This document shows, piece by piece, positions 20,212-41,076 of a stretch of DNA of 41,076 bases. The stretch covers positions 71,046 through 112,121 of the IMG/VR virus record IMGVR_UViG_2867339791_000001, one strand, 5' to 3'. Every line of letters starts with the position of its first letter. The first letter of the stretch is position 1. The notes beneath the pieces were generated by a model, which saw only the letters and a list, made by a program, of their open reading frames with translations, was not told the DNA's origin and made no database searches. The position numbers were made by a program, and so were the translations under genes. This DNA comes from a virus.

Positions 20212-20726
20212 TGCCGCGGGCAGGTCCACGGGTCGTCGAGGTTCGAGGCGACGACCCGTGGCAGGTGTGTTCGCTCGCGCTTCCGGTCCGCGCGTTGGGC
20301 CGACATCGGATCACCGCCGACCGGTACCGCGAGCTGCGCGCCGCCCAGGACGGAGTGTGCGCGATCTGCCAGCAGGCGAACCTACGCGGTCCCGGCGCCG
20401 TTCCCCTCTACATCGATCACGACCACGTCTGCTGCCCCGACCACCACCGCACCTGCGGCCAGTGCATCCGCGGCCTGCTGTGCTCCGGCTGCAACGGCTC
20501 GCTCGGAGAGTTGGAGCTGTGGGGCCGCCTGCCGTACGGCGATGACGGGACGTGGGAGGCGGCTGCGTTGCGGTACCTGGCCGGGGCCGGCTGCGACCCG
20601 TTCGACCCGCAGCGGCGGCAGGCGGTTGAAAGCCGACACCGCGAGCGGGTCGCGAAGTGGTCGGAGCCGTGCCGCTGCCGCGTCTGCCGCCCCGCCGAGC
20701 CGCCACCGGATGACGTAACTCGGTAG
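20208..20726 (+). CDS. Recombination endonuclease VII-family protein
   Basis: QDGVCAICQ...IDHDH...IRGLLCSGCN. Confidence 0.88.
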   Translation: MMPRAGPRVVEVRGDDPWQVCSLALPVRALGRHRITADRYRELRAAQDGVCAICQQANLRGPGAVPLYIDHDHVCCPDHHRTCGQCIRGLLCSGCNGSLGELELWGRLPYGDDGTWEAAALRYLAGAGCDPFDPQRRQAVESRHRERVAKWSEPCRCRVCRPAEPPPDDVTR

Positions 20727-20783
20727 TTGTTATTGCCACCGCGCCAGGGTTGCCGTACCGTCGGTGATGTCAGCGCTACTCGG
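20717..20783 (+). promoter_or_regulatory. Putative tRNA-array promoter (degenerate copy F of the element module)
   Basis: AACTCGGTAGTTGT-TA-TTGCCA(20733)-17-TACCGT(20756)-CGGTGATGTCAGCGCTACT. Confidence 0.65.
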
Positions 20784-20874
20784 CGGGCGGGCCGGTGGAC
20801 GGAAACTCCGTTGCTGGTTTGCCCGCCGGGAGCCTACGGTCTTCACGAACCGATCCACTGAGGAGTAGCCGGTC

Positions 20875-20991
20875 ATGATGCGCCACACGACCCCAGAACC
20901 GCAGCAGCGGGTGTCGCTGCGCGGTGGGTGGTGCGTGGACATCGCCGCAAGCTCCGTCGACAACTTCAAGCTCGGTAGGTGGCGCGGCTGA
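20875..20991 (+). CDS. Putative 38-aa leader peptide (uORF) of the tRNA-array attenuator
   Basis: GAGGAG RBS at 20860; MMRHTTPEPQQRVSLRGGWCVDIAASSVDNFKLGRWRG*. Confidence 0.7.
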   Translation: MMRHTTPEPQQRVSLRGGWCVDIAASSVDNFKLGRWRG

Positions 20992-21011
20992 CCGCGAGTC
21001 CCCCAGGACAC

Positions 21012-21056
21012 GGAAGCCGCCCACCCAGCCAAGGGGTAGGGCGGCTTTCTCGTTCT
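21012..21056 (+). terminator. Intrinsic terminator/attenuator hairpin before the first tRNA
   Basis: GGAAGCCGCCC(21012-22)/GGGCGGCTTTC(21039-49) with TTTCTCGTTCT tail; alternative pairing with 20978-20989. Confidence 0.75.
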
Positions 21057-21070
21057 CGGCACAAGTCCAT

Positions 21071-21142
21071 AGGGGTGTAGCTCAGCGGCAGAGCAGCGAT
21101 CTCCAAAGTCGTGAAGCGCAGGTTCGAGTCCTGTCACCCCTG
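21071..21142 (+). tRNA. tRNA-Trp(CCA)
   Basis: Cloverleaf; gcgat-CTCCAAA-gtcgt. Confidence 0.92.
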
Positions 21143-21176
21143 CTCAACGTCCCGGCCCTCGCGGTCGGCTCGGCGA

Positions 21177-21199
21177 TGATCATTGAGAACTCCACAGCG
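21177..21199 (+). promoter_or_regulatory. rrn-like boxA antitermination element
   Basis: TGATCATTGAGAACTCCACAGCG resembles the actinobacterial rRNA-leader TTGAGAACTCAACAG; preceded by a small hairpin. Confidence 0.65.
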
Positions 21200-21262
21200 G
21201 ATGGCATACAGACGACACCCGGCCGGCGGCAGCACCGCCGTCGCCGGCCGGGGAGTCGGAAT

Positions 21263-21335
21263 GGGCTTGTGGCGCAGCTGGTAGCGCGCCGCTCTGGCAG
21301 AGCGGAGGTCCCCGGTTCGAACCCGGGCAGGTCCA
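21263..21335 (+). tRNA. tRNA-Ala(GGC)
   Basis: Cloverleaf; G3:U70. Confidence 0.93.
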
Positions 21336-21343
21336 CACATCAT

Positions 21344-21416
21344 GCCCACCAAGCTCAGGTGGTAGAGCGCGCCCCTGAAAAGGGCGAGGCTCCCGGTTCG
21401 ACGCCGGGGGTGGGCA
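21344..21416 (+). tRNA. tRNA-Phe(GAA)
   Basis: cgccc-CTGAAAA-gggcg. Confidence 0.92.
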
Positions 21417-21466
21417 CGTTGGCGGGGTCCGCTGGCTGCGGACGGCGGAACCCCGCCAGCTCCAAT

Positions 21467-21541
21467 CGGCCGTTGGAGCTGCCTGGAAAGCTCGTCACGC
21501 TCTCAACGTGAAGATCACGGGTTCAAATCCCGTACGGCCGA
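21467..21541 (+). tRNA. tRNA-Glu(CTC)
   Basis: tcacg-CTCTCAA-cgtga. Confidence 0.88.
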
Positions 21542-21553
21542 CGCAACGCCCAT

Positions 21554-21626
21554 GCGGTCCTGGTGAACTCGGCGGACACGCCGGTCTTCCAAACCGGAGA
21601 AGCGGGTTCGATGCCCGCGGGCCGCT
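21554..21626 (+). tRNA. tRNA-Gly(TCC)
   Basis: ccggt-CTTCCAA-accgg; U73. Confidence 0.88.
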
Positions 21627-21755
21627 CGGAGGGCAGGGAAAGGGGGCGGCGGACGCCGCGAAACCCGAGGCCGGGTTGCGCAGCCCGGTCAACGGCCGCG
21701 CGGGGTCGCTCCCCGTGGCAGCGCGGAAGGTCACCGCCCCTGCTCCCTGCCCCGA
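21626..21755 (+). ncRNA. Unassigned ~130-nt structured RNA within the array
   Basis: Closing stem GGGCAGGGA..AGGGGGCGG/CCGCCCCT..TCCCTGCCC enclosing two hairpins. Confidence 0.45.
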
Positions 21756-21761
21756 CCACGA

Positions 21762-21833
21762 TGGGGGCTCGGCTAATCGGCAGGCCGCCTGATTTTGGCT
21801 CAGGTCGTGGGGGTTCGAGTCCTCCGTCCTCAG
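21762..21833 (+). tRNA. tRNA-Gln(TTG)
   Basis: cctga-TTTTGGC-tcagg; U1:A72. Confidence 0.9.
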
Positions 21834-21838
21834 CTCTC

Positions 21839-21913
21839 GCCCTGCTACCCCAACTGGCACGAGGGCGCCAGCTCAAACCTGGTGTGTTGGCGGTTCGAGT
21901 CCGTCGCAGGGCA
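21839..21913 (+). tRNA. tRNA-Leu(CAA), short variable arm
   Basis: gccag-CTCAAAC-ctggt. Confidence 0.88.
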
Positions 21914-21918
21914 CTCAT

Positions 21919-21996
21919 GCCGTCGTAACTCAGCCTGGCCAGAGCGCCGACCTGGTACGTCGGAGGCCGCCGGTTCGAATCCGGCCGTCGGCTCCA
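21919..21996 (+). tRNA. tRNA-Thr(GGT)
   Basis: ccgac-CTGGTAC-gtcgg; encoded CCA. Confidence 0.9.
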
Positions 21997-21997
21997 T

Positions 21998-22070
21998 GCG
22001 GTTGTAGCGCAGTTGGTAGCGCGCCACCTTGCCATGGTGGAGGTCGCCGGTTCGAACCCGGTCAGCCGCT
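21998..22070 (+). tRNA. tRNA-Gly(GCC)
   Basis: ccacc-TTGCCAT-ggtgg. Confidence 0.93.
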
Positions 22071-22074
22071 CTCG

Positions 22075-22093
22075 TTGACAGATCATCTGTCAA
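22075..22093. promoter_or_regulatory. Perfect palindrome upstream of the HNH gene
   Basis: TTGACAGAT-C-ATCTGTCAA. Confidence 0.5.
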
Positions 22094-22170
22094 TTCGTCA
22101 ACCACCGTTGGAACGTCACCCCGGCGCTCCAACACCACCGCCGGTCCAGTTGGAAGAAGGGAGGGACCTG

Positions 22171-22614
22171 GTGGACGTCGTACTTGTCATCAACGCCGAC
22201 CTCGGGCCCCTCCACCGGGTCACCGTCGCCCACGCGATCCGGATGCTGTGCCGCCGGGTCGCCGAGATCCACGAAGCCGAGCCGGACCGGCTCATCGGCG
22301 TGTTCCCCATGCCGAAGGTCGTGCGGCTCGTCCGTTACGTGGTCACCCGGTGGCGGTACAGCAAGGGTCCCGCCTGGTCGAAGTCGGGCGTGCTGGCCCG
22401 TGACGGCCGTCGGTGCGGCTACTGCTCCGGCCCGGCCGCGACCGTCGACCACATCCTGCCCCGCTCGCGGGGTGGGCAGAACACCTGGCGGAACACCGTC
22501 AGCGCGTGCGCGCCCTGCAACCAGGCGAAGGGCGACCGGACCCCGGCCGAGGCCGGCATGGTGCTGCGCATCACGCCGCTTGTGCCGTCGTGGGGGTCGC
22601 TGGCGCAGCGCTGA
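22171..22614 (+). CDS. HNH endonuclease
   Basis: AAGGAGG RBS and GTG; RDGRRCGYC...TVDHILPRSRGG..TWRNTVSACAPCNQAKGDR. Confidence 0.93.
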   Translation: MDVVLVINADLGPLHRVTVAHAIRMLCRRVAEIHEAEPDRLIGVFPMPKVVRLVRYVVTRWRYSKGPAWSKSGVLARDGRRCGYCSGPAATVDHILPRSRGGQNTWRNTVSACAPCNQAKGDRTPAEAGMVLRITPLVPSWGSLAQR

Positions 22615-22648
22615 CCCGGCCGGCGGGCCATCACCCCGCCGGCCCCGA

Positions 22649-22722
22649 TGCGGGCTGGTGCAATCTGGCAGCACGTCCGGCTCTGGACCGGAAGGTTGGA
22701 GGTTCGAGTCCTCCGCCCGCAG
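22649..22722 (+). tRNA. tRNA-Gln(CTG)
   Basis: tccgg-CTCTGGA-ccgga. Confidence 0.92.
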
Positions 22723-22728
22723 CTCAAT

Positions 22729-22804
22729 GCCCTCGTAGCCCAGCGGTAGAGGCGACGGTCTGAGGGGCCGTACAGGGCAGGTTCGAGTCCTGCCGAGGGC
22801 ACCA
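22729..22804 (+). tRNA. tRNA-Leu(GAG), short variable arm
   Basis: acggt-CTGAGGG-gccgt; CCA. Confidence 0.9.
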
Positions 22805-22805
22805 T

Positions 22806-22880
22806 GCCGGCGTAGCTCAGCGGCAGAGCAACTGCCTTGTAAGCAGCGTCGCGCCGGTTCGACTCCGGCCGCCGGCTCCA
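22806..22880 (+). tRNA. tRNA-Thr(TGT)
   Basis: ctgc-CTTGTAA-gcag; CCA. Confidence 0.9.
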
Positions 22881-22985
22881 CAACCTGCGCATTCGTTGTC
22901 GCGGATGTCCGCCCGGGGCGGGTGGCCGCTCCCCCACGATGACGTCGGGGGGCGAGATGAGCGGCGTTCGCAGCGAGCGCGGGCG

Positions 22986-24056
22986 GTGAGCCCGGCCCGG
23001 CGCCGGGCGGAGGGGCCAGCCGACCCGAGGCTGCGCCGCCCGGTTGCGCCGATGCTCGCCGCGCCCGTCGACCAGGTGCCCGAAGGGCCCGGCCTCATCC
23101 ACGAGCCGAAGTGGGACGGGTGGCGGGCGATCGCCTTCCGGGACAGCGACGGCGTGTACCTCCAATCGCGCGCCGGCCGGAACTTGACCACGTACTTCCC
23201 GGACATCACCCGGGCGATCCGGTCGGCGATCCCCGCAGGGGCGGTGCTCGACGGCGAGCTGATCGTGTGGGAGCGGGGCCGGACCAACTTCGCCCAGCTC
23301 CAACGCCGGATCACGGCCGGCCGCGGCCTGCTGCGGCTGGCCCGCGACTGCCCCGCCCACTACGTGCTGTTCGACGTGCTCGCCGACGCTGGCGGGGAGG
23401 TGGTCCTGGACCTGCCGCTGTTCGAGCGGCGGGCCCGGCTGGAACGGCTCCTCGCCGACGCTCCCCCGACGCTGACGCTCACGCCGCAGACCACCGACAT
23501 GCGGCAGGTGTCTGACTGGCTGATCCACTGGACCGTTGCGACGGGCATCGAGGGGGTCGTGACGAAGCGGCTCGCCGGCAGGTACGAGCCGGGCCGCCGG
23601 GGCTGGTCGAAGTTCCGCACCCGGGTCTTCACGGAGGCCATCGTGGGCGGGGTGACGGGCAGCCTCCGCAACCCGGACACGGCTCTGCTGGGCCGGTTCG
23701 ACCGGCGCGGGAAGCTCCGCTACACCGGCCGCACGCACCCTCTGACCGTCGAGCAGAGGGCCGACCTCGCCGCGGCGCTCTCCCCGCTTCGGCCGTTGCA
23801 GCGTCGCGGCGGAACCGTGGTGCACCCGTGGCCGCAACCGCTACCGGCCGCCTGGTCGGGGCAGCTCGACCGGCCCGAACCGCTGCGGTACGTGCAGGTC
23901 GAACCGACCGCCGTCGTCGAGATCGACGCTGACGTGGCGTTCGAGCACCAGCGGTGGCGGCACAGGGTCAGGTTCAGCAGGACCAGACCGGACATGTCGA
24001 TCTACGACGTGCCGTTGGTCCTCGGTGAGGAGAAGGGCTACTACGGCGAGGCGTAG
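22986..24056 (+). CDS. ATP-dependent DNA ligase (LigC-like; start uncertain)
   Basis: PMLA, EPKWDGWR (adenylated Lys), LDGELIV, FDVL, EGVVTK, YEPGRRGWSK. Confidence 0.93.
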   Translation: MSPARRRAEGPADPRLRRPVAPMLAAPVDQVPEGPGLIHEPKWDGWRAIAFRDSDGVYLQSRAGRNLTTYFPDITRAIRSAIPAGAVLDGELIVWERGRTNFAQLQRRITAGRGLLRLARDCPAHYVLFDVLADAGGEVVLDLPLFERRARLERLLADAPPTLTLTPQTTDMRQVSDWLIHWTVATGIEGVVTKRLAGRYEPGRRGWSKFRTRVFTEAIVGGVTGSLRNPDTALLGRFDRRGKLRYTGRTHPLTVEQRADLAAALSPLRPLQRRGGTVVHPWPQPLPAAWSGQLDRPEPLRYVQVEPTAVVEIDADVAFEHQRWRHRVRFSRTRPDMSIYDVPLVLGEEKGYYGEA

Positions 24057-24080
24057 CCGGCCCTCGATCACTGGGAACAT

Positions 24081-24153
24081 GCCGGCGTAGCTCAACTGGC
24101 AGAGCACGCCCCTCGTAAGGGTGAGGTTGCGGGTTCAACTCCCGCCGCTGGCT
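24081..24153 (+). tRNA. tRNA-Thr(CGT)
   Basis: cgccc-CTCGTAA-gggtg. Confidence 0.92.
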
Positions 24154-24158
24154 CTCAC

Positions 24159-24232
24159 GCCGACGTAGCTCAGGTGGTCAGAGCGCTCCGCTCATAACGG
24201 AGAGGCCCCCGGTTCGACACCGGGCGTCGGCA
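24159..24232 (+). tRNA. tRNA-Met(CAT), elongator (Ile2 not excluded)
   Basis: ctccg-CTCATAA-cggag; paired 1:72. Confidence 0.88.
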
Positions 24233-24243
24233 CGCAACATCAC

Positions 24244-24327
24244 GCGCTCGTGGTGGAACTCAGGTAGACACGCCGGATTCAGGATCCGGTGCCGGAAGGC
24301 GTGGGGGTTCGACTCCCCCCGAGCGCA
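24244..24327 (+). tRNA. tRNA-Leu(CAG)
   Basis: ccgga-TTCAGGA-tccgg; long variable arm. Confidence 0.93.
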
Positions 24328-24332
24328 CGCAT

Positions 24333-24408
24333 GGGGTCGTAGCTCAGTTGGTAGAGCATCCCGTTCGCACCGGGAAGGCCAGCGGTTCGATTCCGCTCGG
24401 CTCCACCA
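24333..24408 (+). tRNA. tRNA-Ala(CGC)
   Basis: tcccg-TTCGCAC-cggga; G3:U70; CCA. Confidence 0.93.
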
Positions 24409-24409
24409 T

Positions 24410-24485
24410 GCCCTGTCGGTCCAGTCAGGAGTGGACGCCGGATTGTCAATCCGGAGATTCGCGGGTTCAAATCCCGTACGGGGCG
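24410..24485 (+). tRNA. tRNA-Asp(GTC)
   Basis: ccgga-TTGTCAA-tccgg; G73. Confidence 0.92.
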
Positions 24486-24490
24486 CGCAT

Positions 24491-24581
24491 GGAGGGGTGG
24501 CATGAGCGGTCTATGGCGCTGCCCTGCTAAGGCAGACCGGAGGCAACTCCGGCCCGGGTTCGAATCCCGGTCCCTCCGCCA
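24491..24581 (+). tRNA. tRNA-Ser(GCT)
   Basis: ctgcc-CTGCTAA-ggcag; long variable arm; CCA. Confidence 0.92.
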
Positions 24582-24582
24582 A

Positions 24583-24658
24583 GCCGTCGTGGCCAAGTCC
24601 GGTTAAGGCACCTCGCTGATAACGAGGAGATGCGCTGGTTCGATTCCAGCCGACGGCA
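24583..24658 (+). tRNA. tRNA-Ile(GAT)
   Basis: cctcg-CTGATAA-cgagg. Confidence 0.92.
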
Positions 24659-24673
24659 CGCAGCAATTTTCTT

Positions 24674-24746
24674 GCCCCCGTAGCTCAGCGGACAGAGTGT
24701 CTGGCTACGAACCAGAAGGCCGCAGGTTCGATTCCTGCCGGGGGTA
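24674..24746 (+). tRNA. tRNA-Arg(ACG)
   Basis: tctgg-CTACGAA-ccaga. Confidence 0.93.
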
Positions 24747-24751
24747 CGCAT

Positions 24752-24823
24752 CGGGACGTGGCGCAGGGGTAGCGCGCTGGTCTGGGGGACCAGAGGACGG
24801 GAGTTCGAGACTCCCCGTCCCGA
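24752..24823 (+). tRNA. tRNA-Pro(GGG)
   Basis: ctggt-CTGGGGG-accag; C1:G72. Confidence 0.9.
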
Positions 24824-24828
24824 CTCAA

Positions 24829-24902
24829 CGGGTACTAGCTCAGCTTGGGAGAGCGCGCCCTTCGGGAGGGCGAGGCCGGGGGTTCAATTCCCTCGTACCC
24901 GA
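24829..24902 (+). tRNA. tRNA-Pro(CGG)
   Basis: cgccc-TTCGGGA-gggcg. Confidence 0.92.
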
Positions 24903-24907
24903 CTCAT

Positions 24908-24990
24908 GGAGGGTAGCGCCCAGTGGTGGGCAACCGGCCTCGAAAACCGGGCCGCTGGAAACGGCGAGGGTTCGACTCCTTTACCTTCCG
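24908..24990 (+). tRNA. tRNA-Ser(CGA)
   Basis: Anticodon loop CTCGAAA; long variable arm; G73. Confidence 0.87.
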
Positions 24991-25829
24991 CGTTTGCCGG
25001 CGAGGCAGATCAACGCCCGATCGACGGCTCCACAGCGGCGCGACTTCAACCACGGCCGCAGTTCCGGGAGCAGTTCGCGCAGCTCGTTGATGCGGCACAC
25101 GTTCCACGTCGCGGTTGGACGCCACTTCTCGTTCCGTGACGGCCGCTCATAAACGCGCCCCATGCCGGTCGCTGAGTGAAGCCGAACGATGGTGTCTAGA
25201 TCGGTCGAGTTCACTCCGAGAGACACGTCACCTCGGGCGGAGACGCTGATGCAGCCCTCACCTTCGACGATGCCGGCGACCCACGGGATGTGTTCGGCAG
25301 ACGTCAACTCCCGCCGGGCGGGGAAGGTGGCGACTGGTTGCCCTCCGGCTAACCAGAGGCCGACGGCAGCCGAACGGCGACGATGACCGAGTAGCGGTGC
25401 GACTTCCGCGACCAGCCAAGCCGTGTGCGAATGAGCGTTGACGGTCCAGTACCACGAGGGCTTATGTGCACGGTTCCTCGGTGTGTACGCATTGACCGTA
25501 CCTACCCCCGTCATCTGGTGGGCGTCGCTGATGACGTCCTGGTCCGTCATCTGGACCCGGACGCGGGGTGCACCCTCCTTTACCAGGAAGGTCCCTTCGC
25601 CTTCGAGGAGCCCAGCCAGCCACGCTCGCTGGTCTGCACGTAGTTTCTGCGGGGCTGGTCGCTCGCGGTTGCAGGTCGCGCACTGTACTGACTTGCGGTC
25701 CATCGGTGCGCCACACGCGCACCGCCACTTCAGCTTCAGACGCTGGTAGCGGCAGGGCTCGCATTCACGCCGCCGGTCAGCTGACCAGTAAGGCTTGCCG
25801 CAGGTAGCGCATCTGGGCTGGTTTGTCAC
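24981..25829 (-). CDS. Zn-ribbon plus double-motif LAGLIDADG homing endonuclease 1
   Basis: CxxC repeats; AWLAGLLEGEGTF and PWVAGIVEGEGCI; GTG 6 nt after a TATTGT -10. Confidence 0.88.
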   Translation of the reverse strand: MTNQPRCATCGKPYWSADRRRECEPCRYQRLKLKWRCACGAPMDRKSVQCATCNRERPAPQKLRADQRAWLAGLLEGEGTFLVKEGAPRVRVQMTDQDVISDAHQMTGVGTVNAYTPRNRAHKPSWYWTVNAHSHTAWLVAEVAPLLGHRRRSAAVGLWLAGGQPVATFPARRELTSAEHIPWVAGIVEGEGCISVSARGDVSLGVNSTDLDTIVRLHSATGMGRVYERPSRNEKWRPTATWNVCRINELRELLPELRPWLKSRRCGAVDRALICLAGKRGR

Positions 25830-25874
25830 CCATACACAATACCCTATGCGTGAGGGCCTTTCCCTCTCCGCCAA

Positions 25875-25946
25875 GCCTCCGTAGCTCAGAGGAAGAGCAA
25901 CCGACTCTTAATCGGTGGGCCGGGATTTCGAAATTCCCCGGAGGCA
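25875..25946 (+). tRNA. tRNA-Lys(CTT)
   Basis: accga-CTCTTAA-tcggt. Confidence 0.92.
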
Positions 25947-25952
25947 CAGTAC

Positions 25953-26025
25953 GCCCCGCTAGCTCAGGGGATAGAGCAGCAGTTTCCTAAACTGCGTGTC
26001 GCTGGTTCGATTCCAGCGCGGGGCA
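25953..26025 (+). tRNA. tRNA-Arg(CCT)
   Basis: gcagt-TTCCTAA-actgc. Confidence 0.93.
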
Positions 26026-26031
26026 CAGCAC

Positions 26032-26103
26032 GGGCCGCTAGCTCAGTGGTAGAGCTGCCGACTTTTAATCGGAGTGTCCAGAGTTCGATCCTCTGGCGGC
26101 CCA
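26032..26103 (+). tRNA. tRNA-Lys(TTT)
   Basis: ccga-CTTTTAA-tcgg. Confidence 0.92.
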
Positions 26104-26105
26104 CT

Positions 26106-26180
26106 TGCGGGATGGCGCAGTTATGGAAGCGCGCTGGGCTCATAACCCAGAGGCCGCCGGTTCGAATCCGGCTCCCGCTC
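26106..26180 (+). tRNA. Initiator tRNA-fMet(CAT)
   Basis: ctggg-CTCATAA-cccag (three G:C pairs); unpaired 1:72. Confidence 0.88.
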
Positions 26181-26182
26181 CC

Positions 26183-26254
26183 GCCCCGGTAGTTCAGTGG
26201 GAGAACGCCGCCTCGACAAGGCGGAGGTCGCTGGTTCGACACCAGCTCGGGGCA
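26183..26254 (+). tRNA. tRNA-Val(GAC)
   Basis: ccgcc-TCGACAA-ggcgg (C33). Confidence 0.9.
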
Positions 26255-26259
26255 CGCAA

Positions 26260-26333
26260 CGCGCGTTCGGTTATGGGTAGGCCCTGGGTCTTTCAAGCCC
26301 ATGAAGCGGGTTCGAGTCCCGCACGCGCGACCA
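26260..26333 (+). tRNA. tRNA-Glu(TTC)
   Basis: tgggt-CTTTCAA-gccca; CCA. Confidence 0.88.
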
Positions 26334-26334
26334 T

Positions 26335-26411
26335 TCCGGTGTCGCCCAATCGGTAGGGCAGCGGACTGTTAATCCGTACAGGTACAGGTTCGAGTCCTGT
26401 CGCCGGAGCCA
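26335..26411 (+). tRNA. tRNA-Asn(GTT)
   Basis: gcgga-CTGTTAA-tccgt; CCA. Confidence 0.92.
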
Positions 26412-26412
26412 A

Positions 26413-26484
26413 GCCCGTGTAGCTCAGCGGCAGAGCACCGCTCCCACACAGCGGGTCGCCCTGGTTCGAGTTCAGGTACGGGTA
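26413..26484 (+). tRNA. tRNA-Val(CAC)
   Basis: ccgct-CCCACAC-agcgg (C33). Confidence 0.87.
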
Positions 26485-26504
26485 CTGGCCTTCGGGCCGC
26501 AGTT

Positions 26505-26578
26505 GTGGCTGTAGCTCAATGGGAGAGCGGCGGGTTGTGGCCCCGCAGATGCCGGGTCAGTACCGGCCAGTCACCCCA
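26505..26578 (+). tRNA. tRNA-His(GTG), atypical
   Basis: gcggg-TTGTGGC-cccgc; C73 and CCA; T-loop GTCAGTA; no encoded G-1. Confidence 0.82.
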
Positions 26579-26579
26579 A

Positions 26580-26661
26580 GCGCGTCGTGAGCGGCTGGTC
26601 GCTCCCCCGTCTGTAAAACGGGCGCCTTACGGCACGCCTGGTTCAAGTCCAGGGACGCGCA
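26580..26661 (+). tRNA. tRNA-Tyr(GTA)
   Basis: cccgt-CTGTAAA-acggg; long variable arm. Confidence 0.88.
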
Positions 26662-27493
26662 CCGAGACCAAGCGATCGACAGCGATCGTCCGGCGAGACA
26701 GCATCCACGGCCGGATGGCGTCGAGGAAGGGCAGGAGGAGGCCCTTTCGATACAGCTGCCACCTGTGCGCGGGTCGGTGGTTCTCTTTGCCCCGCTTCGC
26801 GGCCGTGATCGAGCCACCACCTGCGAGCTGCGCCAGCCGCTCAAGGACGTCGAGGTCGGTCGACGTCACCTCCAGGTAGGGCGGCCCAATCCACCCCTCG
26901 CCTTCGACCAGCCCGGCCGCCCATGCCGCCCCCGCCGGATCACTTAGGGTGTACGGCCACGAAGGGCTGGGCAGGGTGGGCGGGTTAGTGAAGTTGCTGA
27001 CGAGGAGCGTTGCAGCCTCCCGTCGTCGTGCGGAGAGCAGCGGACAGATCTTGGTCACCAGCCAAAAGAGGTCGTCGCGCCGCTGAACGGTGAGGATCCA
27101 CGACGGCTTGTGATGGTCAACCTTCGGGGTATACGGCCGGACCCGGGGAGCAAACGGCAAGTGCTCGGCCAGTGTCTCGATCACGTCGAGGTCGGTCATC
27201 TGAACGCGGACTACGCCTCCTCCGGACCGCCTCCGCACGAAGGTCCCCTCGCCCTCGATCAGACCAGCAATCCAAGCCAGCCGGGCCTGATCGGGCTCAT
27301 CGACAATCGGCGTACTCCCGTACGCGCACGACCGGCACTGCTTGGCCTTCAGAGACTTCGGTGACCCGCACGAGCACGGGGCCTTCGCCTGCTGCCTTCG
27401 GTACTCACAGGCACTGCACAGGCGGTGCCTGCTGGTGCGGATGAATCGCCGAGAGCAGCCGTCGCAGACTCGCGTGCCGATTGAGTCGACCAT
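26627..27493 (-). CDS. Zn-ribbon plus double-motif LAGLIDADG homing endonuclease 2
   Basis: CxxC repeats; AWIAGLIEGEGTF and AWAAGLVEGEGWI; ATG 6 nt after a TATAGT -10. Confidence 0.88.
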   Translation of the reverse strand: MVDSIGTRVCDGCSRRFIRTSRHRLCSACEYRRQQAKAPCSCGSPKSLKAKQCRSCAYGSTPIVDEPDQARLAWIAGLIEGEGTFVRRRSGGGVVRVQMTDLDVIETLAEHLPFAPRVRPYTPKVDHHKPSWILTVQRRDDLFWLVTKICPLLSARRREAATLLVSNFTNPPTLPSPSWPYTLSDPAGAAWAAGLVEGEGWIGPPYLEVTSTDLDVLERLAQLAGGGSITAAKRGKENHRPAHRWQLYRKGLLLPFLDAIRPWMLSRRTIAVDRLVSVRVPGLEPGVP

Positions 27494-27535
27494 GGAATCA
27501 CTATAGGCGCAGCAGGTCCCCTTCGCCTGCACCAT

Positions 27536-27608
27536 GCCCTCGTAGCTCAGCGGATAGAGCACCGGCTTCCGGAGCCGGCGGTCGGCCGTTCGAATCGGTC
27601 CGAGGGTG
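27536..27608 (+). tRNA. tRNA-Arg(CCG)
   Basis: ccggc-TTCCGGA-gccgg. Confidence 0.92.
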
Positions 27609-27613
27609 CGTAC

Positions 27614-27687
27614 GGTCGCATGCCCGAGTGGTCAGGGAGCCGCCTGCAAAGCGGCGCACCGGGGTTCGAGTCCCCGTGCGGCCTCCA
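27614..27687 (+). tRNA. tRNA-Cys(GCA)
   Basis: gccgc-CTGCAAA-gcggc; U73 and CCA. Confidence 0.92.
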
Positions 27688-27703
27688 CGTGATGCCATCC
27701 GCT

Positions 27704-27853
27704 GTGGACATGCAGCGTAAATCGATAGACGCAACCTCTACCGAGCTGCTATCGTCAGACCTGCGGGGCCGGCTCCCGAGTGTGCTTCCTTCTAACCCTT
27801 TCAAATGGCTGAGAACTAGCGCGCTCAATCACCGGCCCCGCACTCATGTCCAC
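27704..27853 (+). ncRNA. Candidate ~150-nt two-module structured RNA upstream of the RING/TerD gene
   Basis: GTGGACATG/CATGTCCAC closing stem; TGCGGGGCCGG/CCGGCCCCGCA; GAGTGTGCT/AGCGCGCTC; CGATAG/CTATCG. Confidence 0.55.
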
Positions 27854-27888
27854 GTCCAGATCACCCCGACGAAAGGCCGGTGACCGGC

Positions 27889-30486
27889 ATGGCGACCCAG
27901 ACCCGCACCCAGACCGCCCGGACCCGGCCGGCCACCCTCGTCCGGGTGCTCCTGCGCCGCCGAGGCACCGTCTACGTACCCGCCGGCACCGACCAGTTCA
28001 ACCCGGACGCGCGGCCGGGCGTGACCCTGCTCGAAGCCGACCTGGCCGAGCGGGGCTGGCTGCTGTCCCAGCCGCTGCGCGACGCCCTGCTGCGTCTCGA
28101 CACCGTCGACCTCACTGCCCTCGGCTCTCGGCTGCTCGCCGACTGCGACGAGCTGGTAGGCGGCGGCCGTGACCACACGCCGCTGTTCCGGCGCTTCCCC
28201 GACCGGGTGCCCAACGACACCCTCGGCCTGTTCGTCGACCGGATCCTCACCGCCTGGTTCCAGGAGCCCACGCAGCCCTGCGTGCTGTGCTTCGCGGCCG
28301 GCACCGTCCGGCCGGTCAACCCGTGCGGGCACCTGGTGTGCGGTGACTGCTTCCGGCCGGCGGACTACTCGGCCTGCCCGATCTGCTACCGGCAGCTCGA
28401 CCCGGCGGACCCGTACCTGGCCGCCGGCGAGCCGGCCGTCGAGGACCGGCCGCGCGAGCCGCGCGAGGTGACCGGCCCCGCGCCGGCACGCCTCCGGGTG
28501 CTGCACCTCGGCGGCGGCCTGCTCGCCCAGGTGCGCGCCGAGGTGCTGTCCCTGCTCGCCCGCCCCACCGCGCTGCCGCCGGCCGACGCCGACGACCTGG
28601 CCGTCATGCTGGCCGGCCTCGACCGCACCGACGTGTCGTGGCTGCCCGCCGCCGTGCCGGGCCGGGAGACGAAGGCCCGCCTGCTGGCGTGGCTGCTCGC
28701 CGACCCGGTCGACCCGGCCGTGGTGGAGGCGCACGTCACCGCGCTGGTCGACACCGCCACCGACGTGCTGCGGTTCCTCGTCGCCCGTTCGGGCGGTGAG
28801 TCGCTGATCGACCGGCCGCGGATCGCGCCGGTCGCCCGGCCGCTGCGCCGGGTGCTGCTGGCCGCCCTCGACCGGATGGGCGTGGTGCAGCTCGTCGAGG
28901 ACATGCGCCGGCACCGTCGGGCGTGGATCGCCGTCGGTGAGCGGCTGCACCCGGGCGAGCACGCCGGCCGGTGGCCGAATGTTGCGCTGGCGTTCGCCGC
29001 GCTGCGCGGCACCACCCTGAACCAGGTGCAGGCCGCAGCGCTCATGCTCAACGACCGCACGGCGAGCGCGGAGCACGTTCATGTCCGTGACGGCCGGGTG
29101 CTGATCGCCGTCCGGGCCCGCCGGGTCGAGGAAGCCCTGGCGGCCCGTGACCTCACCGCCGCTCTGGGTGCCCTGCGCGCCCGTCCGGGTGAGCTGCTGC
29201 GCCGCGCCGACCACCTGCTGCGCATCGGCGCCGGCCGTCACAACGCGCTGGTCGAGGAGATCGGCCGCGCGGCCCGGCAGGCCGCCCCGGCGGTGATCCT
29301 GTCGGCCCTGGGTGAGATCCGCACCCGCGCGGTCGCCCACGACCAGCGGGTGTTCTTCCCCGCCGGCCGCACAGGCACCGCGCACGTCGTCGAGGACGCT
29401 CGCTCGCCGCTGGCCCCGCACCTGGTCGGGCAGGCGGAACGGGCGCTGAAGGCCGCCCTGTTCGAGCGTGCCGCTGCGCTGCCGGCCGTCGACCGGGCCG
29501 TGGTCGACACCGACTTGGAGGGCATCATCGCCCCGTTCACGGAGCGCACCGCCGCCCGCGCCCTGGTCACCCTGGCCCGCGGTTCGGTCCTGCCGATCCC
29601 GGCCGGCCAGGTCGTGCGTCTGTTCCTGCACTGGATGGAGTCGGAGCAGCGGGTCGACCTGGACCTGTCGGTGGCCGTCTACAGCAAGACGTGGGAGCAC
29701 GTTGGCACCTGCGACTTCACCAACCTGCGGCTGCCCGGGGCCGTGCACTCGGGTGACTTCACCAGCGCCCCGGCACCGCGCGGCGCGTCGGAGTTCATCG
29801 ACCTGGACGTGGACGTCCTCGCCAAGCAGGGCGGCCGGTACGCGGTCATGTCGGTGCTCAGCTACAACAACGTGCCGTTCCTCGACATGGCGGAGGCGTT
29901 CGCCGGGTTCATGGTCCGCGACCAGCTCGGCGGCCGGCGGGAGCCGTTCGACGCGCGTGCGGTGGAGCAGCGGTTCGACCTGACCGGCCCCGGCAAGGTC
30001 ACCATCCCGTTCGTCGTCGACCTGCACGCTCGGACGATGCGGTGGCTCGACGTCGCCGCGAAGGTGACCGGCACCAACCACGCGGTGCACCGCCACGCCG
30101 ACCAGTTCTCCACCGTGGCGCGAGCCTTGGTGGCCTCGTTCGAGGCGGGCGGCCGGGTCACCCTCGGGGAGCTGGGCCGGTGGATCGCCGCCGCCCGCGC
30201 CCGCGAGGTGATCGTGCGCAGCCCCGCGGGCATGACGCTGTTCCGGCGGGCCGACCACGAGTCGGTGTCGACATTCGCGCTGCGGCTGCGCACCGGGCTC
30301 AGCTCGTCGCCGGCCACGGCGGAGGACGCCGCGTCGGCCGCGTTGCAGTTCGTGGCGCGCGGTGACCTGCCGACGCCGGACGGCGCGGAGGTGTACGCGC
30401 TGCACCCCGGCCAGCTCGACGCGGGCCGGGTGCGGCTGCTGGCCGCACCGGACGTGCCGGCGATGCTTGCCCCTCCGGGGCCGTAG
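27889..30486 (+). CDS. Prokaryotic RING-finger plus TerD-like protein (MXAN_6230/SCO0854-like family)
   Basis: CVLC..PCGHLVCGDCF..YSACPIC RING; TATDVLR, RPGELLRR; C-terminal RVDLDLS..HSGDFTSAP..GASEFIDL TerD-like region. Confidence 0.85.
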   Translation: MATQTRTQTARTRPATLVRVLLRRRGTVYVPAGTDQFNPDARPGVTLLEADLAERGWLLSQPLRDALLRLDTVDLTALGSRLLADCDELVGGGRDHTPLFRRFPDRVPNDTLGLFVDRILTAWFQEPTQPCVLCFAAGTVRPVNPCGHLVCGDCFRPADYSACPICYRQLDPADPYLAAGEPAVEDRPREPREVTGPAPARLRVLHLGGGLLAQVRAEVLSLLARPTALPPADADDLAVMLAGLDRTDVSWLPAAVPGRETKARLLAWLLADPVDPAVVEAHVTALVDTATDVLRFLVARSGGESLIDRPRIAPVARPLRRVLLAALDRMGVVQLVEDMRRHRRAWIAVGERLHPGEHAGRWPNVALAFAALRGTTLNQVQAAALMLNDRTASAEHVHVRDGRVLIAVRARRVEEALAARDLTAALGALRARPGELLRRADHLLRIGAGRHNALVEEIGRAARQAAPAVILSALGEIRTRAVAHDQRVFFPAGRTGTAHVVEDARSPLAPHLVGQAERALKAALFERAAALPAVDRAVVDTDLEGIIAPFTERTAARALVTLARGSVLPIPAGQVVRLFLHWMESEQRVDLDLSVAVYSKTWEHVGTCDFTNLRLPGAVHSGDFTSAPAPRGASEFIDLDVDVLAKQGGRYAVMSVLSYNNVPFLDMAEAFAGFMVRDQLGGRREPFDARAVEQRFDLTGPGKVTIPFVVDLHARTMRWLDVAAKVTGTNHAVHRHADQFSTVARALVASFEAGGRVTLGELGRWIAAARAREVIVRSPAGMTLFRRADHESVSTFALRLRTGLSSSPATAEDAASAALQFVARGDLPTPDGAEVYALHPGQLDAGRVRLLAAPDVPAMLAPPGP

Positions 30487-39580: not shown

Positions 39581-40138
39581 ATGACGCACAACCTGAGCTA
39601 CCCCCGCGATCTGAACGACAACACGGAGCGGGAGATCCACGCGGCCCGTAAGCAGCGAGAACGCCGGATCTGTCGGCTCCTCGCGGAGCGGAGGCAGATG
39701 CGGCCCCCTCGGATCTACACCCGGGCCACCGTGATCGCCGGCATCGCTGCGGTCCTGGACTGGGTGATGGTCGCCTTCCACACCGCCAGCGTGCGAGGCC
39801 GCGCGCAGGACCCGATGATCGGCACCCATCAGGCGCTCGTGGCGACGCTCTCCATCATTGCCGCGTGCCTCGCGATCGGCTGGGCCATCATGGAGATGCA
39901 GCGCCGGTTCGAAGTCAAACGAGACGAGATCGAGGATCTGCGCCATCAGGACCGCACGGCGCTGGCCGAGTGGGCGATGGTCGTGGCGAGCAACCGGGAG
40001 TGGCAGAGCTACGCCGTCGGTGTGCGGGAGGGGCAGGGCTACAACCGCAACGCATCGACCGATCCGCACAACGCCGTCGTGCCGCTGTCGCAGCGCACCG
40101 CCGGCAGCCGGCAGCCCGGCCACCGGTACTACAGCTAG
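39581..40138 (+). CDS. 2-TM hypothetical protein
   Basis: GGAG RBS; two hydrophobic helices. Confidence 0.7.
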   Translation: MTHNLSYPRDLNDNTEREIHAARKQRERRICRLLAERRQMRPPRIYTRATVIAGIAAVLDWVMVAFHTASVRGRAQDPMIGTHQALVATLSIIAACLAIGWAIMEMQRRFEVKRDEIEDLRHQDRTALAEWAMVVASNREWQSYAVGVREGQGYNRNASTDPHNAVVPLSQRTAGSRQPGHRYYS

Positions 40139-41076
40139 ACGCCGCGCATCACGTCGATGTTGTCGTAGGCGCGCTGTGCCCGTCGTCCCCGGGCGGCCGA
40201 CCCGTAGTGCAGGAGCATCTGCCTGGACTCCCACCCGTTGAGTTCCATCAGGTCGCCCTCGGCGCCGCCCGCGTCCAGCCAGTTGTGGGTGAACGTGTGC
40301 CTGAACAGGTGCGGGTGGACCTTCAGGCCGATCCGTGCACCTCGCCGCTTGACGATCTGCCGCACCCCTGACGGCGTCATCGGCACGTTCCGGCGCACGC
40401 CGATCCACAGGGCTTTGGTGAGCTTCGCCGCCGAGTGCTCGGACCGCTTCCGCAGGTACCGGTCGAGGGCGAGGGCCGCCTTGGCGTCGAACTTGACGGT
40501 GCGTGTCCTGCCGCCCTTGCCGGTAACCACGGCGGTCCGCTTCGCCACGTCGACATCGTCGAGGTCCAGGCCGGTGATCTCGGCGAGTCGGCAGCCGGTC
40601 GCGGCGAACAGCCTCATGAGGGCCGCATCGCGGCGGTCCTCATAGGTCTTGCCCTTCTCCGCGTCCTTGATCAGCGCGGCGAGCTGTTCGGTCTCGATGA
40701 TCGGCTTCGGCTCGGCGCCAACCTTGACCGGCGGCGGGGGCTTGAACTTGTCGAACGGGTCGACCGTGTCCTCTTCCTCGGCGTACCACTTGAAGAACGC
40801 TTGCAACGCGCGGCCGATGTTGTTGCGGTAGCCGCGGGCGTACTCGATCTCCTGCATGTGGGCGAAGAACTGGCGCAGCTCGTCGCGGGTTACCTGCGCC
40901 CACGACCGGATGTCGGTTTCGCGCAGCAGCCAGCCGGCGAACCAGGATGCCGCGTCGGTGTAAATCTCCCTCGTGCGTTCTGACCGTTCGGCGACTTGGA
41001 GTGACAGCCGGAACGAGGCGATCCACGGGGCGAACGAGCCGAGGTCTTCTGGTAGGTCACCGCGCCGGCTGGCCAT
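40135..41076 (-). CDS. Tyrosine recombinase/integrase
   Basis: TGCRLAE (R), TGKG (K), HLFRH (HxxR), NGW, HY (Y); N-terminal SAM-like domain. Confidence 0.95.
   Translation of the reverse strand: MASRRGDLPEDLGSFAPWIASFRLSLQVAERSERTREIYTDAASWFAGWLLRETDIRSWAQVTRDELRQFFAHMQEIEYARGYRNNIGRALQAFFKWYAEEEDTVDPFDKFKPPPPVKVGAEPKPIIETEQLAALIKDAEKGKTYEDRRDAALMRLFAATGCRLAEITGLDLDDVDVAKRTAVVTGKGGRTRTVKFDAKAALALDRYLRKRSEHSAAKLTKALWIGVRRNVPMTPSGVRQIVKRRGARIGLKVHPHLFRHTFTHNWLDAGGAEGDLMELNGWESRQMLLHYGSAARGRRAQRAYDNIDVMRGV

Follow-up and report, generated by a model that had tools for sequence, protein, structure and literature searches.

Described systems closest to the array

The leader of the ribosomal RNA (rrn) operons, in E. 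coli as in the host of the element studied here, has a boxB-boxA-boxC arrangement and is associated with the rrnTAC complex (NusA, NusB, NusE, NusG, SuhB and S4). In the crystal structure of NusB-NusE-boxA, base-specific contacts are made to 8 nt only, ending at TT (PMC3177189), and mycobacterial boxC, the counterpart of the linker described below, is reported to bind NusA, as far as a citation in PMC2724277 conveys it. The leader-trailer helix of rrn is essential for 30S formation (PMC10250234), and the model of rrn transcription followed by our proposal has been published (PMC10250234; bioRxiv 10.64898/2026.03.17.712431).

The lambda nut site (boxA-boxB with N) and the HK022 put RNA are early RNA signals of mobile elements that make the host polymerase resistant to termination, as is proposed for the present array; the array differs from both in that it mimics rrn and not nut, is coupled to a long-range helix, and has no defined boxB that we could find. 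In Bacillus subtilis, tRNA clusters reportedly lie directly behind rrn operons (a description said to go back to Rudner et al. in 1993, as cited in PMC5966550). In these clusters many tRNAs are transcribed by a polymerase already modified at the rrn boxA, which is also what we propose for the array; whereas the clusters borrow a chromosomal rrn promoter and boxA, the array has its own copy and its own closing helix.

Mobile tRNA arrays on phages, plasmids and integrated elements have been widely catalogued. The units described in actinobacteria, phages and plasmids (PMC5966550, PMC4758250, PMC12803027) are, like the present one, dense blocks of at least 20 tRNA genes on mobile DNA, to which the rrn-type frame proposed here would be an added layer; in a term search of PMC5966550 and PMC12803027, no mention came up of promoters, terminators, boxA, flanking repeats or flanking complementarity. 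In a search of the literature, no paper was found in which tRNA arrays are connected with boxA, with antitermination or with flanking helices, nor one that describes an rRNA-precursor-like layout of a mobile tRNA array.

The tRNA array and its setting

The window (the whole stretch of 41,076 nucleotides that was analysed) corresponds to G000:C2:1001385-1042460 of a 7.18-Mb, 73% GC actinomycete genome (Micromonospora). Using ARAGORN on the window, 35 tRNA genes were detected, all in one orientation (21071-27687), and the array is interrupted by HNH, ATP-dependent ligase-like and two LAGLIDADG genes. Since a tyrosine integrase and a phage-type helicase gene are present in the same window, the array is carried by an integrated mobile element. 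The features that frame and fill the array are the following:

20733-20761, + strand: candidate array promoter, read by eye (-35-like hexamer, 17-nt spacer, TANNNT-type -10)
20876-21056, + strand: small upstream ORF (20876-20992), then a terminator-like hairpin with a T-run (the "attenuator"), upstream of the boxA-like site
21071-21143, + strand: tRNA-Trp(CCA), the sole tRNA outside the bracketing helix
21152-21168, + strand: hairpin 1, CCGGCC (21152-21157) with GGTCGG (21163-21168), one G-U pair
21177-21184, + strand: boxA-like octamer TGATCATT, putative NusB/NusE contact stretch
21185-21191, + strand: linker GAGAACT between octamer and helix, predicted to be single-stranded, its first 6 nt as in the host rrn leader
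21191-21207, + strand: 5' strand of the helix, a perfect 17-nt inverted repeat with 27692-27708
21218-21253, + strand: hairpin 2, GC-rich stem of about 14 bp without a T-run, directly after the 5' arm
21263-27687, + strand: 34 co-oriented tRNA genes within the leader-trailer helix, the last being tRNA-Cys (end at 27687)
22075-22614, + strand: HNH gene, inside the helix-bracketed block
22896-24056, + strand: ATP-dependent ligase-like gene, inside the block
24981-25874 and 26627-27562, - strand: two LAGLIDADG genes, inside the block
27692-27708, + strand: 3' strand of the helix; tRNA-Cys, the last tRNA, lies 5 nt upstream of its start
40135-41076, - strand: tyrosine integrase

Because protein genes lie within the bracketed transcript, the bracketed RNA is not purely non-coding; both LAGLIDADG inserts would be transcribed antisense relative to the tRNA array. 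A consensus promoter scan of positions 20300-28300 called no promoter, the candidate at 20733-20761 included. The upstream terminator hairpin is kept in relatives with changed loops, and tRNA-Trp is found immediately 5' of the module in 61 of 113 related arrays. Where tRNA-Trp(CCA) is present, it is placed between the terminator and the boxA-like site and always outside the helix; in arrays that have no tRNA-Trp, the boxA-like site follows directly 3' of the terminator T-run.

The boxA-like site is on the same strand as all 35 tRNAs and stands ahead of a long, mostly untranslated transcript. When the spacer between tRNA-Trp and tRNA-Ala was folded alone, positions 21180-21212 were left unpaired between two hairpins, and in this prediction boxA and the 5' arm are both locally unpaired. 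Hairpin 1 has a boxB-like placement, and a GC hairpin recurs at this place in many relatives; the sequence of hairpin 2 is kept in most close relatives and missing in some arrays (for instance L041). Hairpin 2 could be a boxB-like element, a pause site or a protective structure. An apparent "conserved motif" seen 3' of hairpin 2 in relatives was rejected, as it is tRNA-Pro. Comparison with Rfam gave only tRNAs at the gathering threshold, and nothing meaningful around the site at E-values up to 5.

Similarity to the boxA of the host rrn operons

The rrn operons of the host are collapsed in the assembly, and three contig ends carry rrn leaders. These three leaders read TGTTCTTT followed by GAGAACTCAACAG, the 16S-23S spacer reads CGTTTGTT followed by GAGAATTGCACAG, and the array reads TGATCATT followed by GAGAACTCCACAG. 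Over GAGAACTC plus ACAG the array is identical to the host rrn leader. In E. coli the 8-mer contacted by NusB/NusE corresponds to UGCUCUUU; the host has TGTTCTTT in its leader and CGTTTGTT in its spacer. The array octamer is identical to that of the leader at 6 of 8 positions: position 3 distinguishes it from all host rrn boxA sequences, and position 6 is a second difference from the leader. The rrn boxA strings are themselves invariant in the relatives compared, which belong to the same genus, to other genera and to another family.

The specificity of this match depends on the length that is considered. For the 10-mer core with at most one mismatch, the window has 1 match against 0.96 expected, which is not significant alone, and about 1.5 chance copies per 7.18-Mb genome are estimated from base composition. 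The exact 10-mer is found five times in the genome, in the three rrn leaders, at the array site and at one unrelated site outside the window (G000:C2:138708, minus strand), which is probably a chance copy, since an A-run precedes it and the ACAG core does not follow it. The 15-mer pattern TTGAGAACTCNACAG, with one free position, occurs genome-wide only in the rrn leaders and at the array site, for an estimated chance expectation of about 0.004. A degenerate form of the 15-mer was also searched in G159 and in three complete genomes (G005, G400 and G408): all its matches fall in rrn leaders or spacers or in tRNA arrays, apart from one or two at other sites between genes, and the reversed 15-mer used as a control gave 0 matches in the same genomes. 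The site is moreover at the same place in related arrays, which indicates more than chance.

A sequence-only reading of this DNA had described a small hairpin followed by an rrn-type boxA signal after the first tRNA. Both are present, the 23-mer lying exactly at 21177-21199, and the rrn sequence that it gave for actinobacterial leaders is exactly that of the host. The position claimed for the signal, past the attenuator and before long untranslated RNA, agrees with its place after the upstream terminator and ahead of 6.5 kb that are mostly untranslated, and the conservation that had been suggested as a check was found, the boxA-like site being positionally conserved in homologous arrays. Alignment to the host rrn boxA supports the claim for the flanking letters, identical to the leader; for the octamer it gives 6 of 8 identities to the leader, and across arrays only positions 1, 2, 7 and 8 are well kept. 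A boxA-like octamer is present where a boxA had been proposed, but the letters that were stressed are mostly outside the NusB/NusE contact site, as they comprise the last two octamer bases, the linker and the start of the helix.

Like the rrn leader, the array has a Y-G-...-U-U octamer, predicted to be single-stranded, followed by GAGAAC, downstream of a start region, before a long untranslated structured transcript and with a hairpin just upstream. It differs from the rrn leader in that its octamer, a putative Nus site, is relaxed (6/8), belongs to a mobile element that has integrated and would serve no RNAs other than tRNAs, and in that the site comes after a terminator-type attenuator and a tRNA.

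A putative leader-trailer helix brackets the array

The same reading had taken the motif as boxA alone, which does not hold: the motif provides, with its 3' half, the 5' strand of a helix bracketing the array, which had gone unseen. The duplex energy of the two arms is -36.1 kcal/mol, compared with a mean of -12.5 (sd 3.1) at all other positions in the array. Ten homologous arrays, from seven genomes of the same genus, one genome of another family, one IMG/VR contig and the window itself, have one order: terminator-like hairpin, tRNA-Trp, hairpin, motif, 5 to 35 tRNAs, and partner arm. In relatives the partner arm is mostly 4-7 nt 3' of the last tRNA.

A wider sample was obtained by a family-wide pattern search, a one-genome-per-species scan and a named plasmid. 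Tallies of homologous arrays include the unpublished genomes G031, G104 and G252; sequences and specific claims rest on the others. The sample contains 55 distinct arm pairs with spans of 0.4-6.9 kb, and 28 different variants of the 5' arm, each with its own complement. At least 2 types of Watson-Crick pair were observed at 6 helix columns (24 arrays), and L096 has a 2-nt insertion that is matched on both arms. Pairing at variable columns is 0.974 and fell to 0.684 +/- 0.019 when partners were shuffled; as the arrays are related, the shuffle overstates independence, and a stronger argument is how many different arm sequences there are. In three loci (L090, L095 and L098), no clear 3' arm was found within the DNA examined.

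The geometry was compared with that of the 23S flank of the host, in which the spacer boxA lies directly 5' of the pre-23S stalk, which pairs with the 23S trailer (-71.7 kcal/mol, contig C19). The start of the 23S stalk and the array arm have in common the nine-base core CACAG-GGA, of which one base differs in the window, and in L083 12 contiguous nt of the 23S arm are retained. In both systems boxA is immediately 5' of a helix strand whose first 9 bp form the same core, and the partner strand comes directly after the enclosed RNA. Since a sequence just 3' of the last tRNA matches the bases right after the boxA-like signal, the layout of the block resembles that of an rRNA precursor. The differences are that the array helix has 34 tRNAs and four protein genes within it where the stalk has 23S, that its core of 16-19 bp is much shorter than the 23S stalk, and that the 23S stalk also pairs over boxA, whereas the array helix ends one or two bases beyond the linker.

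Within 27703-27853, GTGGACATG, with which the 3' arm ends, can also pair with CATGTCCAC at 27845-27853, about 140 nt downstream, a pairing that would close the structured region ahead of a RING-finger gene. As the 3' arm has in this way two mutually exclusive partners, closure of the helix might be coupled to expression of the downstream gene.

Distribution and leaders devoid of tRNAs

With a 19-mer pattern, at least 119 stretches were matched in a collection of one genome per species, including genera of the Micromonosporaceae, Nonomuraea, Actinomadura, Streptomyces, Frankia, Cellulomonas, Gordonia and Pseudonocardiaceae; the closest related array is that of Micromonospora craterilacus. More than 100 arrays across Actinomycetota keep the position of the site, and a full tRNA array with its own arm pair is carried by a plasmid of Frondihabitans sucicola.

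Among 80 loci from the 19-mer scan (L140-L219), 56 have tRNAs within 400 nt downstream and 24 are tRNA-free and intergenic. In the tRNA-free leaders that were inspected, the motif comes after promoter- or operator-like sequence, often with a better octamer, such as TGCTCTTT or CGTTCCTT. Rhodococcus phage RGL3 and a Streptomyces plasmid also have such a leader without tRNAs, for which a partner arm was not found; the loci L135:6001 and L136:3001 are among the tRNA-free ones, which come from actinobacterial plasmids, the Rhodococcus phage and chromosomes. The tRNA-free leaders may be antitermination leaders that depend on host factors only and serve long operons of mobile elements.

In viral contigs, a scan with a 17-mer gave 21 matches, of which L040 and L041 are real arrays and the others look like chance, and most matches that BLAST returned for the 39-nt site in phages and plasmids were at the level of chance. 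The match in Streptomyces phage BRock was discarded, as it is inside a structural gene. At the right end of Mycobacterium phage Phantastic (L137:430-800), four near-identical promoter- or operator-like repeats head the leftward early operon, and a string similar to the array leader comes about 45 nt after each of the first two, with no partner arm found. As the short core also occurs within these repeated sites, the match in the Phantastic group is ambiguous between a boxA-like RNA signal and a repressor site.

Conservation of the octamer

Conservation within the octamer was evaluated on 38 modules assembled without selection on the letters of positions 7 and 8, and on a set of 113 array leaders. 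The constrained positions are:

Octamer position 1: pyrimidine in 35 of 38 and 97 of 113 modules
Octamer position 2: G in 30 of 38 and 93 of 113 modules
Octamer position 7: T in 32 of 38 modules (in the set of 113, fixed by the search pattern for most rows)
Octamer position 8: T in 35 of 38 modules (in the set of 113, fixed by the search pattern for most rows)

The flanks vary, and so do positions 3-6, with a preference for T at position 4 and for C at position 5. By its letters, the array octamer is a relaxed boxA of the form Y-G-N4-T-T, in which there is hardly any constraint on positions 3-6, even though base-specific contacts to each of the 8 nt are seen in the crystal structure. The AACT of the linker is invariant in all arrays found, most of which were found with a pattern containing AACT. 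Directly 3' of the octamer, CTC replaces GAG in 8 of 113 arrays, six of these eight in Micromonospora (L045-L050 and L040 are among the arrays concerned), and the hosts of these CTC arrays keep GAG in their own rrn operons. The presence of CTC arrays in hosts with GAG in rrn argues against strict mimicry, but the switch is outside the 8-nt contact region. CTC is the complement of GAG and makes the 7-mer its own reverse complement, and both forms are kept in several diverged arrays; inspection of the alignment revealed no covarying partner for the switch.

These data bear on the main rival to an rrn-type module, according to which only the helix matters, for processing, end protection or folding of the multi-tRNA precursor, and the boxA, inherited or copied from the 23S flank, is vestigial and recruits no Nus factors. 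The helix is indeed far better conserved than the octamer, and it covaries; the looseness of positions 3-6 and the change from GAG to CTC in hosts whose rrn keeps GAG point the same way, and in E. coli boxA mutations cost 2-3 fold only, when disruption of the helix is lethal for 30S function (PMC10250234). A mere leftover fits poorly with the retention of octamer positions 1, 2, 7 and 8 over 113 diverged leaders in which the neighbouring positions drift, and with the finding that the same boxA-like leader, devoid of a partner arm, heads tRNA-free regions. We thus regard a helix acting alone as the less likely explanation, though one to be taken seriously.

Repeats in DNA, internal promoter and chance

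The arms could also act as an inverted repeat at the DNA level, being double-stranded sites for a repressor or other dimeric protein, or sites for a recombination by which the tRNA cassette is moved or swapped. The core of the proximal arm is a 5-1-5 palindrome, which is typical of protein sites, the element carries homing endonuclease genes, and in phage Phantastic the similar string overlaps repeats resembling repressor sites. Scored symmetrically, helix mismatches comprise 39 G-U and 44 A-C, so that there is no G-U excess, no RNA-type strand signature, and mismatch types do not settle whether the constraint is at the RNA or at the DNA level; an excess of G-U seen under another scoring (27 versus 13) was an artefact and disappeared under symmetric scoring. 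Against sites in DNA, the non-palindromic distal arm varies freely while its complementarity is kept, for which a shared protein site would have no need, and the same core forms the RNA processing stalk of 23S. As for recombination, the arms are not terminal inverted repeats in relatives, since they are not at the edge of the conserved unit: the terminator hairpin and tRNA-Trp outside the 5' arm are conserved too. The enclosed tRNAs keep one orientation, with no inversion seen in any of the arrays examined. Overall, a role of the arms in DNA appears improbable.

The motif could further be read as the -35 box (TTGAGA or TTGACA) of an internal promoter starting transcription 3' of tRNA-Trp, and many relatives have TTGACA here. 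This reading was rejected as very improbable: a TANNNT hexamer 16-19 nt downstream was found in 0 of 113 arrays, the consensus scan of 20300-28300 called no promoter, and in rrn leaders and spacers the same string is within transcripts. Chance resemblance in a GC-rich spacer, which the expected frequency of the 10-mer (about one per window at 1 mismatch, about 1.5 per genome) might suggest, is scarcely credible for a 15-mer confined to rrn and the array, kept in position in more than 100 arrays and coupled to a covarying partner arm.

Proposed mechanism

On balance, we favour the reading of the locus as an rrn-type module, in which Nus factors would be loaded for termination-resistant transcription and a leader-trailer helix would serve to excise the tRNA block. 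The proposal builds on the match to host rrn, the complementarity of the arms, their covariation and the geometry in common with the pre-23S flank; Nus binding, antitermination and cleavage are steps that we infer by analogy with rrn. Transcription passing the upstream terminator and tRNA-Trp would produce the single-stranded relaxed boxA (21177-21184) and the rrn-identical linker, and NusB/NusE, with NusA, NusG and SuhB, would load on the boxA RNA. The Nus-loaded RNA polymerase would then be fast and Rho-resistant over the 6.5 kb of mostly untranslated array, and the Nus complex would retain the 5' strand close to the RNA exit until its 3' partner is transcribed, 6.5 kb later. The closed helix would be a substrate for a double-strand RNase (RNase III), cleavage by which would separate the tRNA block from both its leader and the mRNA that follows.

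Implications for mobile elements of Actinomycetota

Extended beyond this array, the proposal is more tentative, and we hold it as a plausible conjecture that falls somewhat short of an even chance. Mobile elements and phages of Actinomycetota might carry a portable frame that mimics rrn, in which a relaxed boxA recruits the host complex for rRNA transcription and chaperoning, and this complex takes the 5' strand along until its partner is made, kilobases later; tRNA genes placed between the arms would be transcribed without termination and excised as one unit, and the armless leader would be a nut site relying on host factors only, for long phage and plasmid operons.

If true, the rRNA machinery of the host would be borrowed twice, once to bring the polymerase through kilobases of untranslated RNA and once to cut out the product. 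The array would then be a natural and non-essential test bed for the debated model in which Nus factors bound at boxA hold the two ends of a transcript together, for which the corresponding mutations in rRNA are confounded by ribosome defects. The paired arms also provide a simple signature with which mobile tRNA arrays may be found and delimited in actinobacterial genomes.
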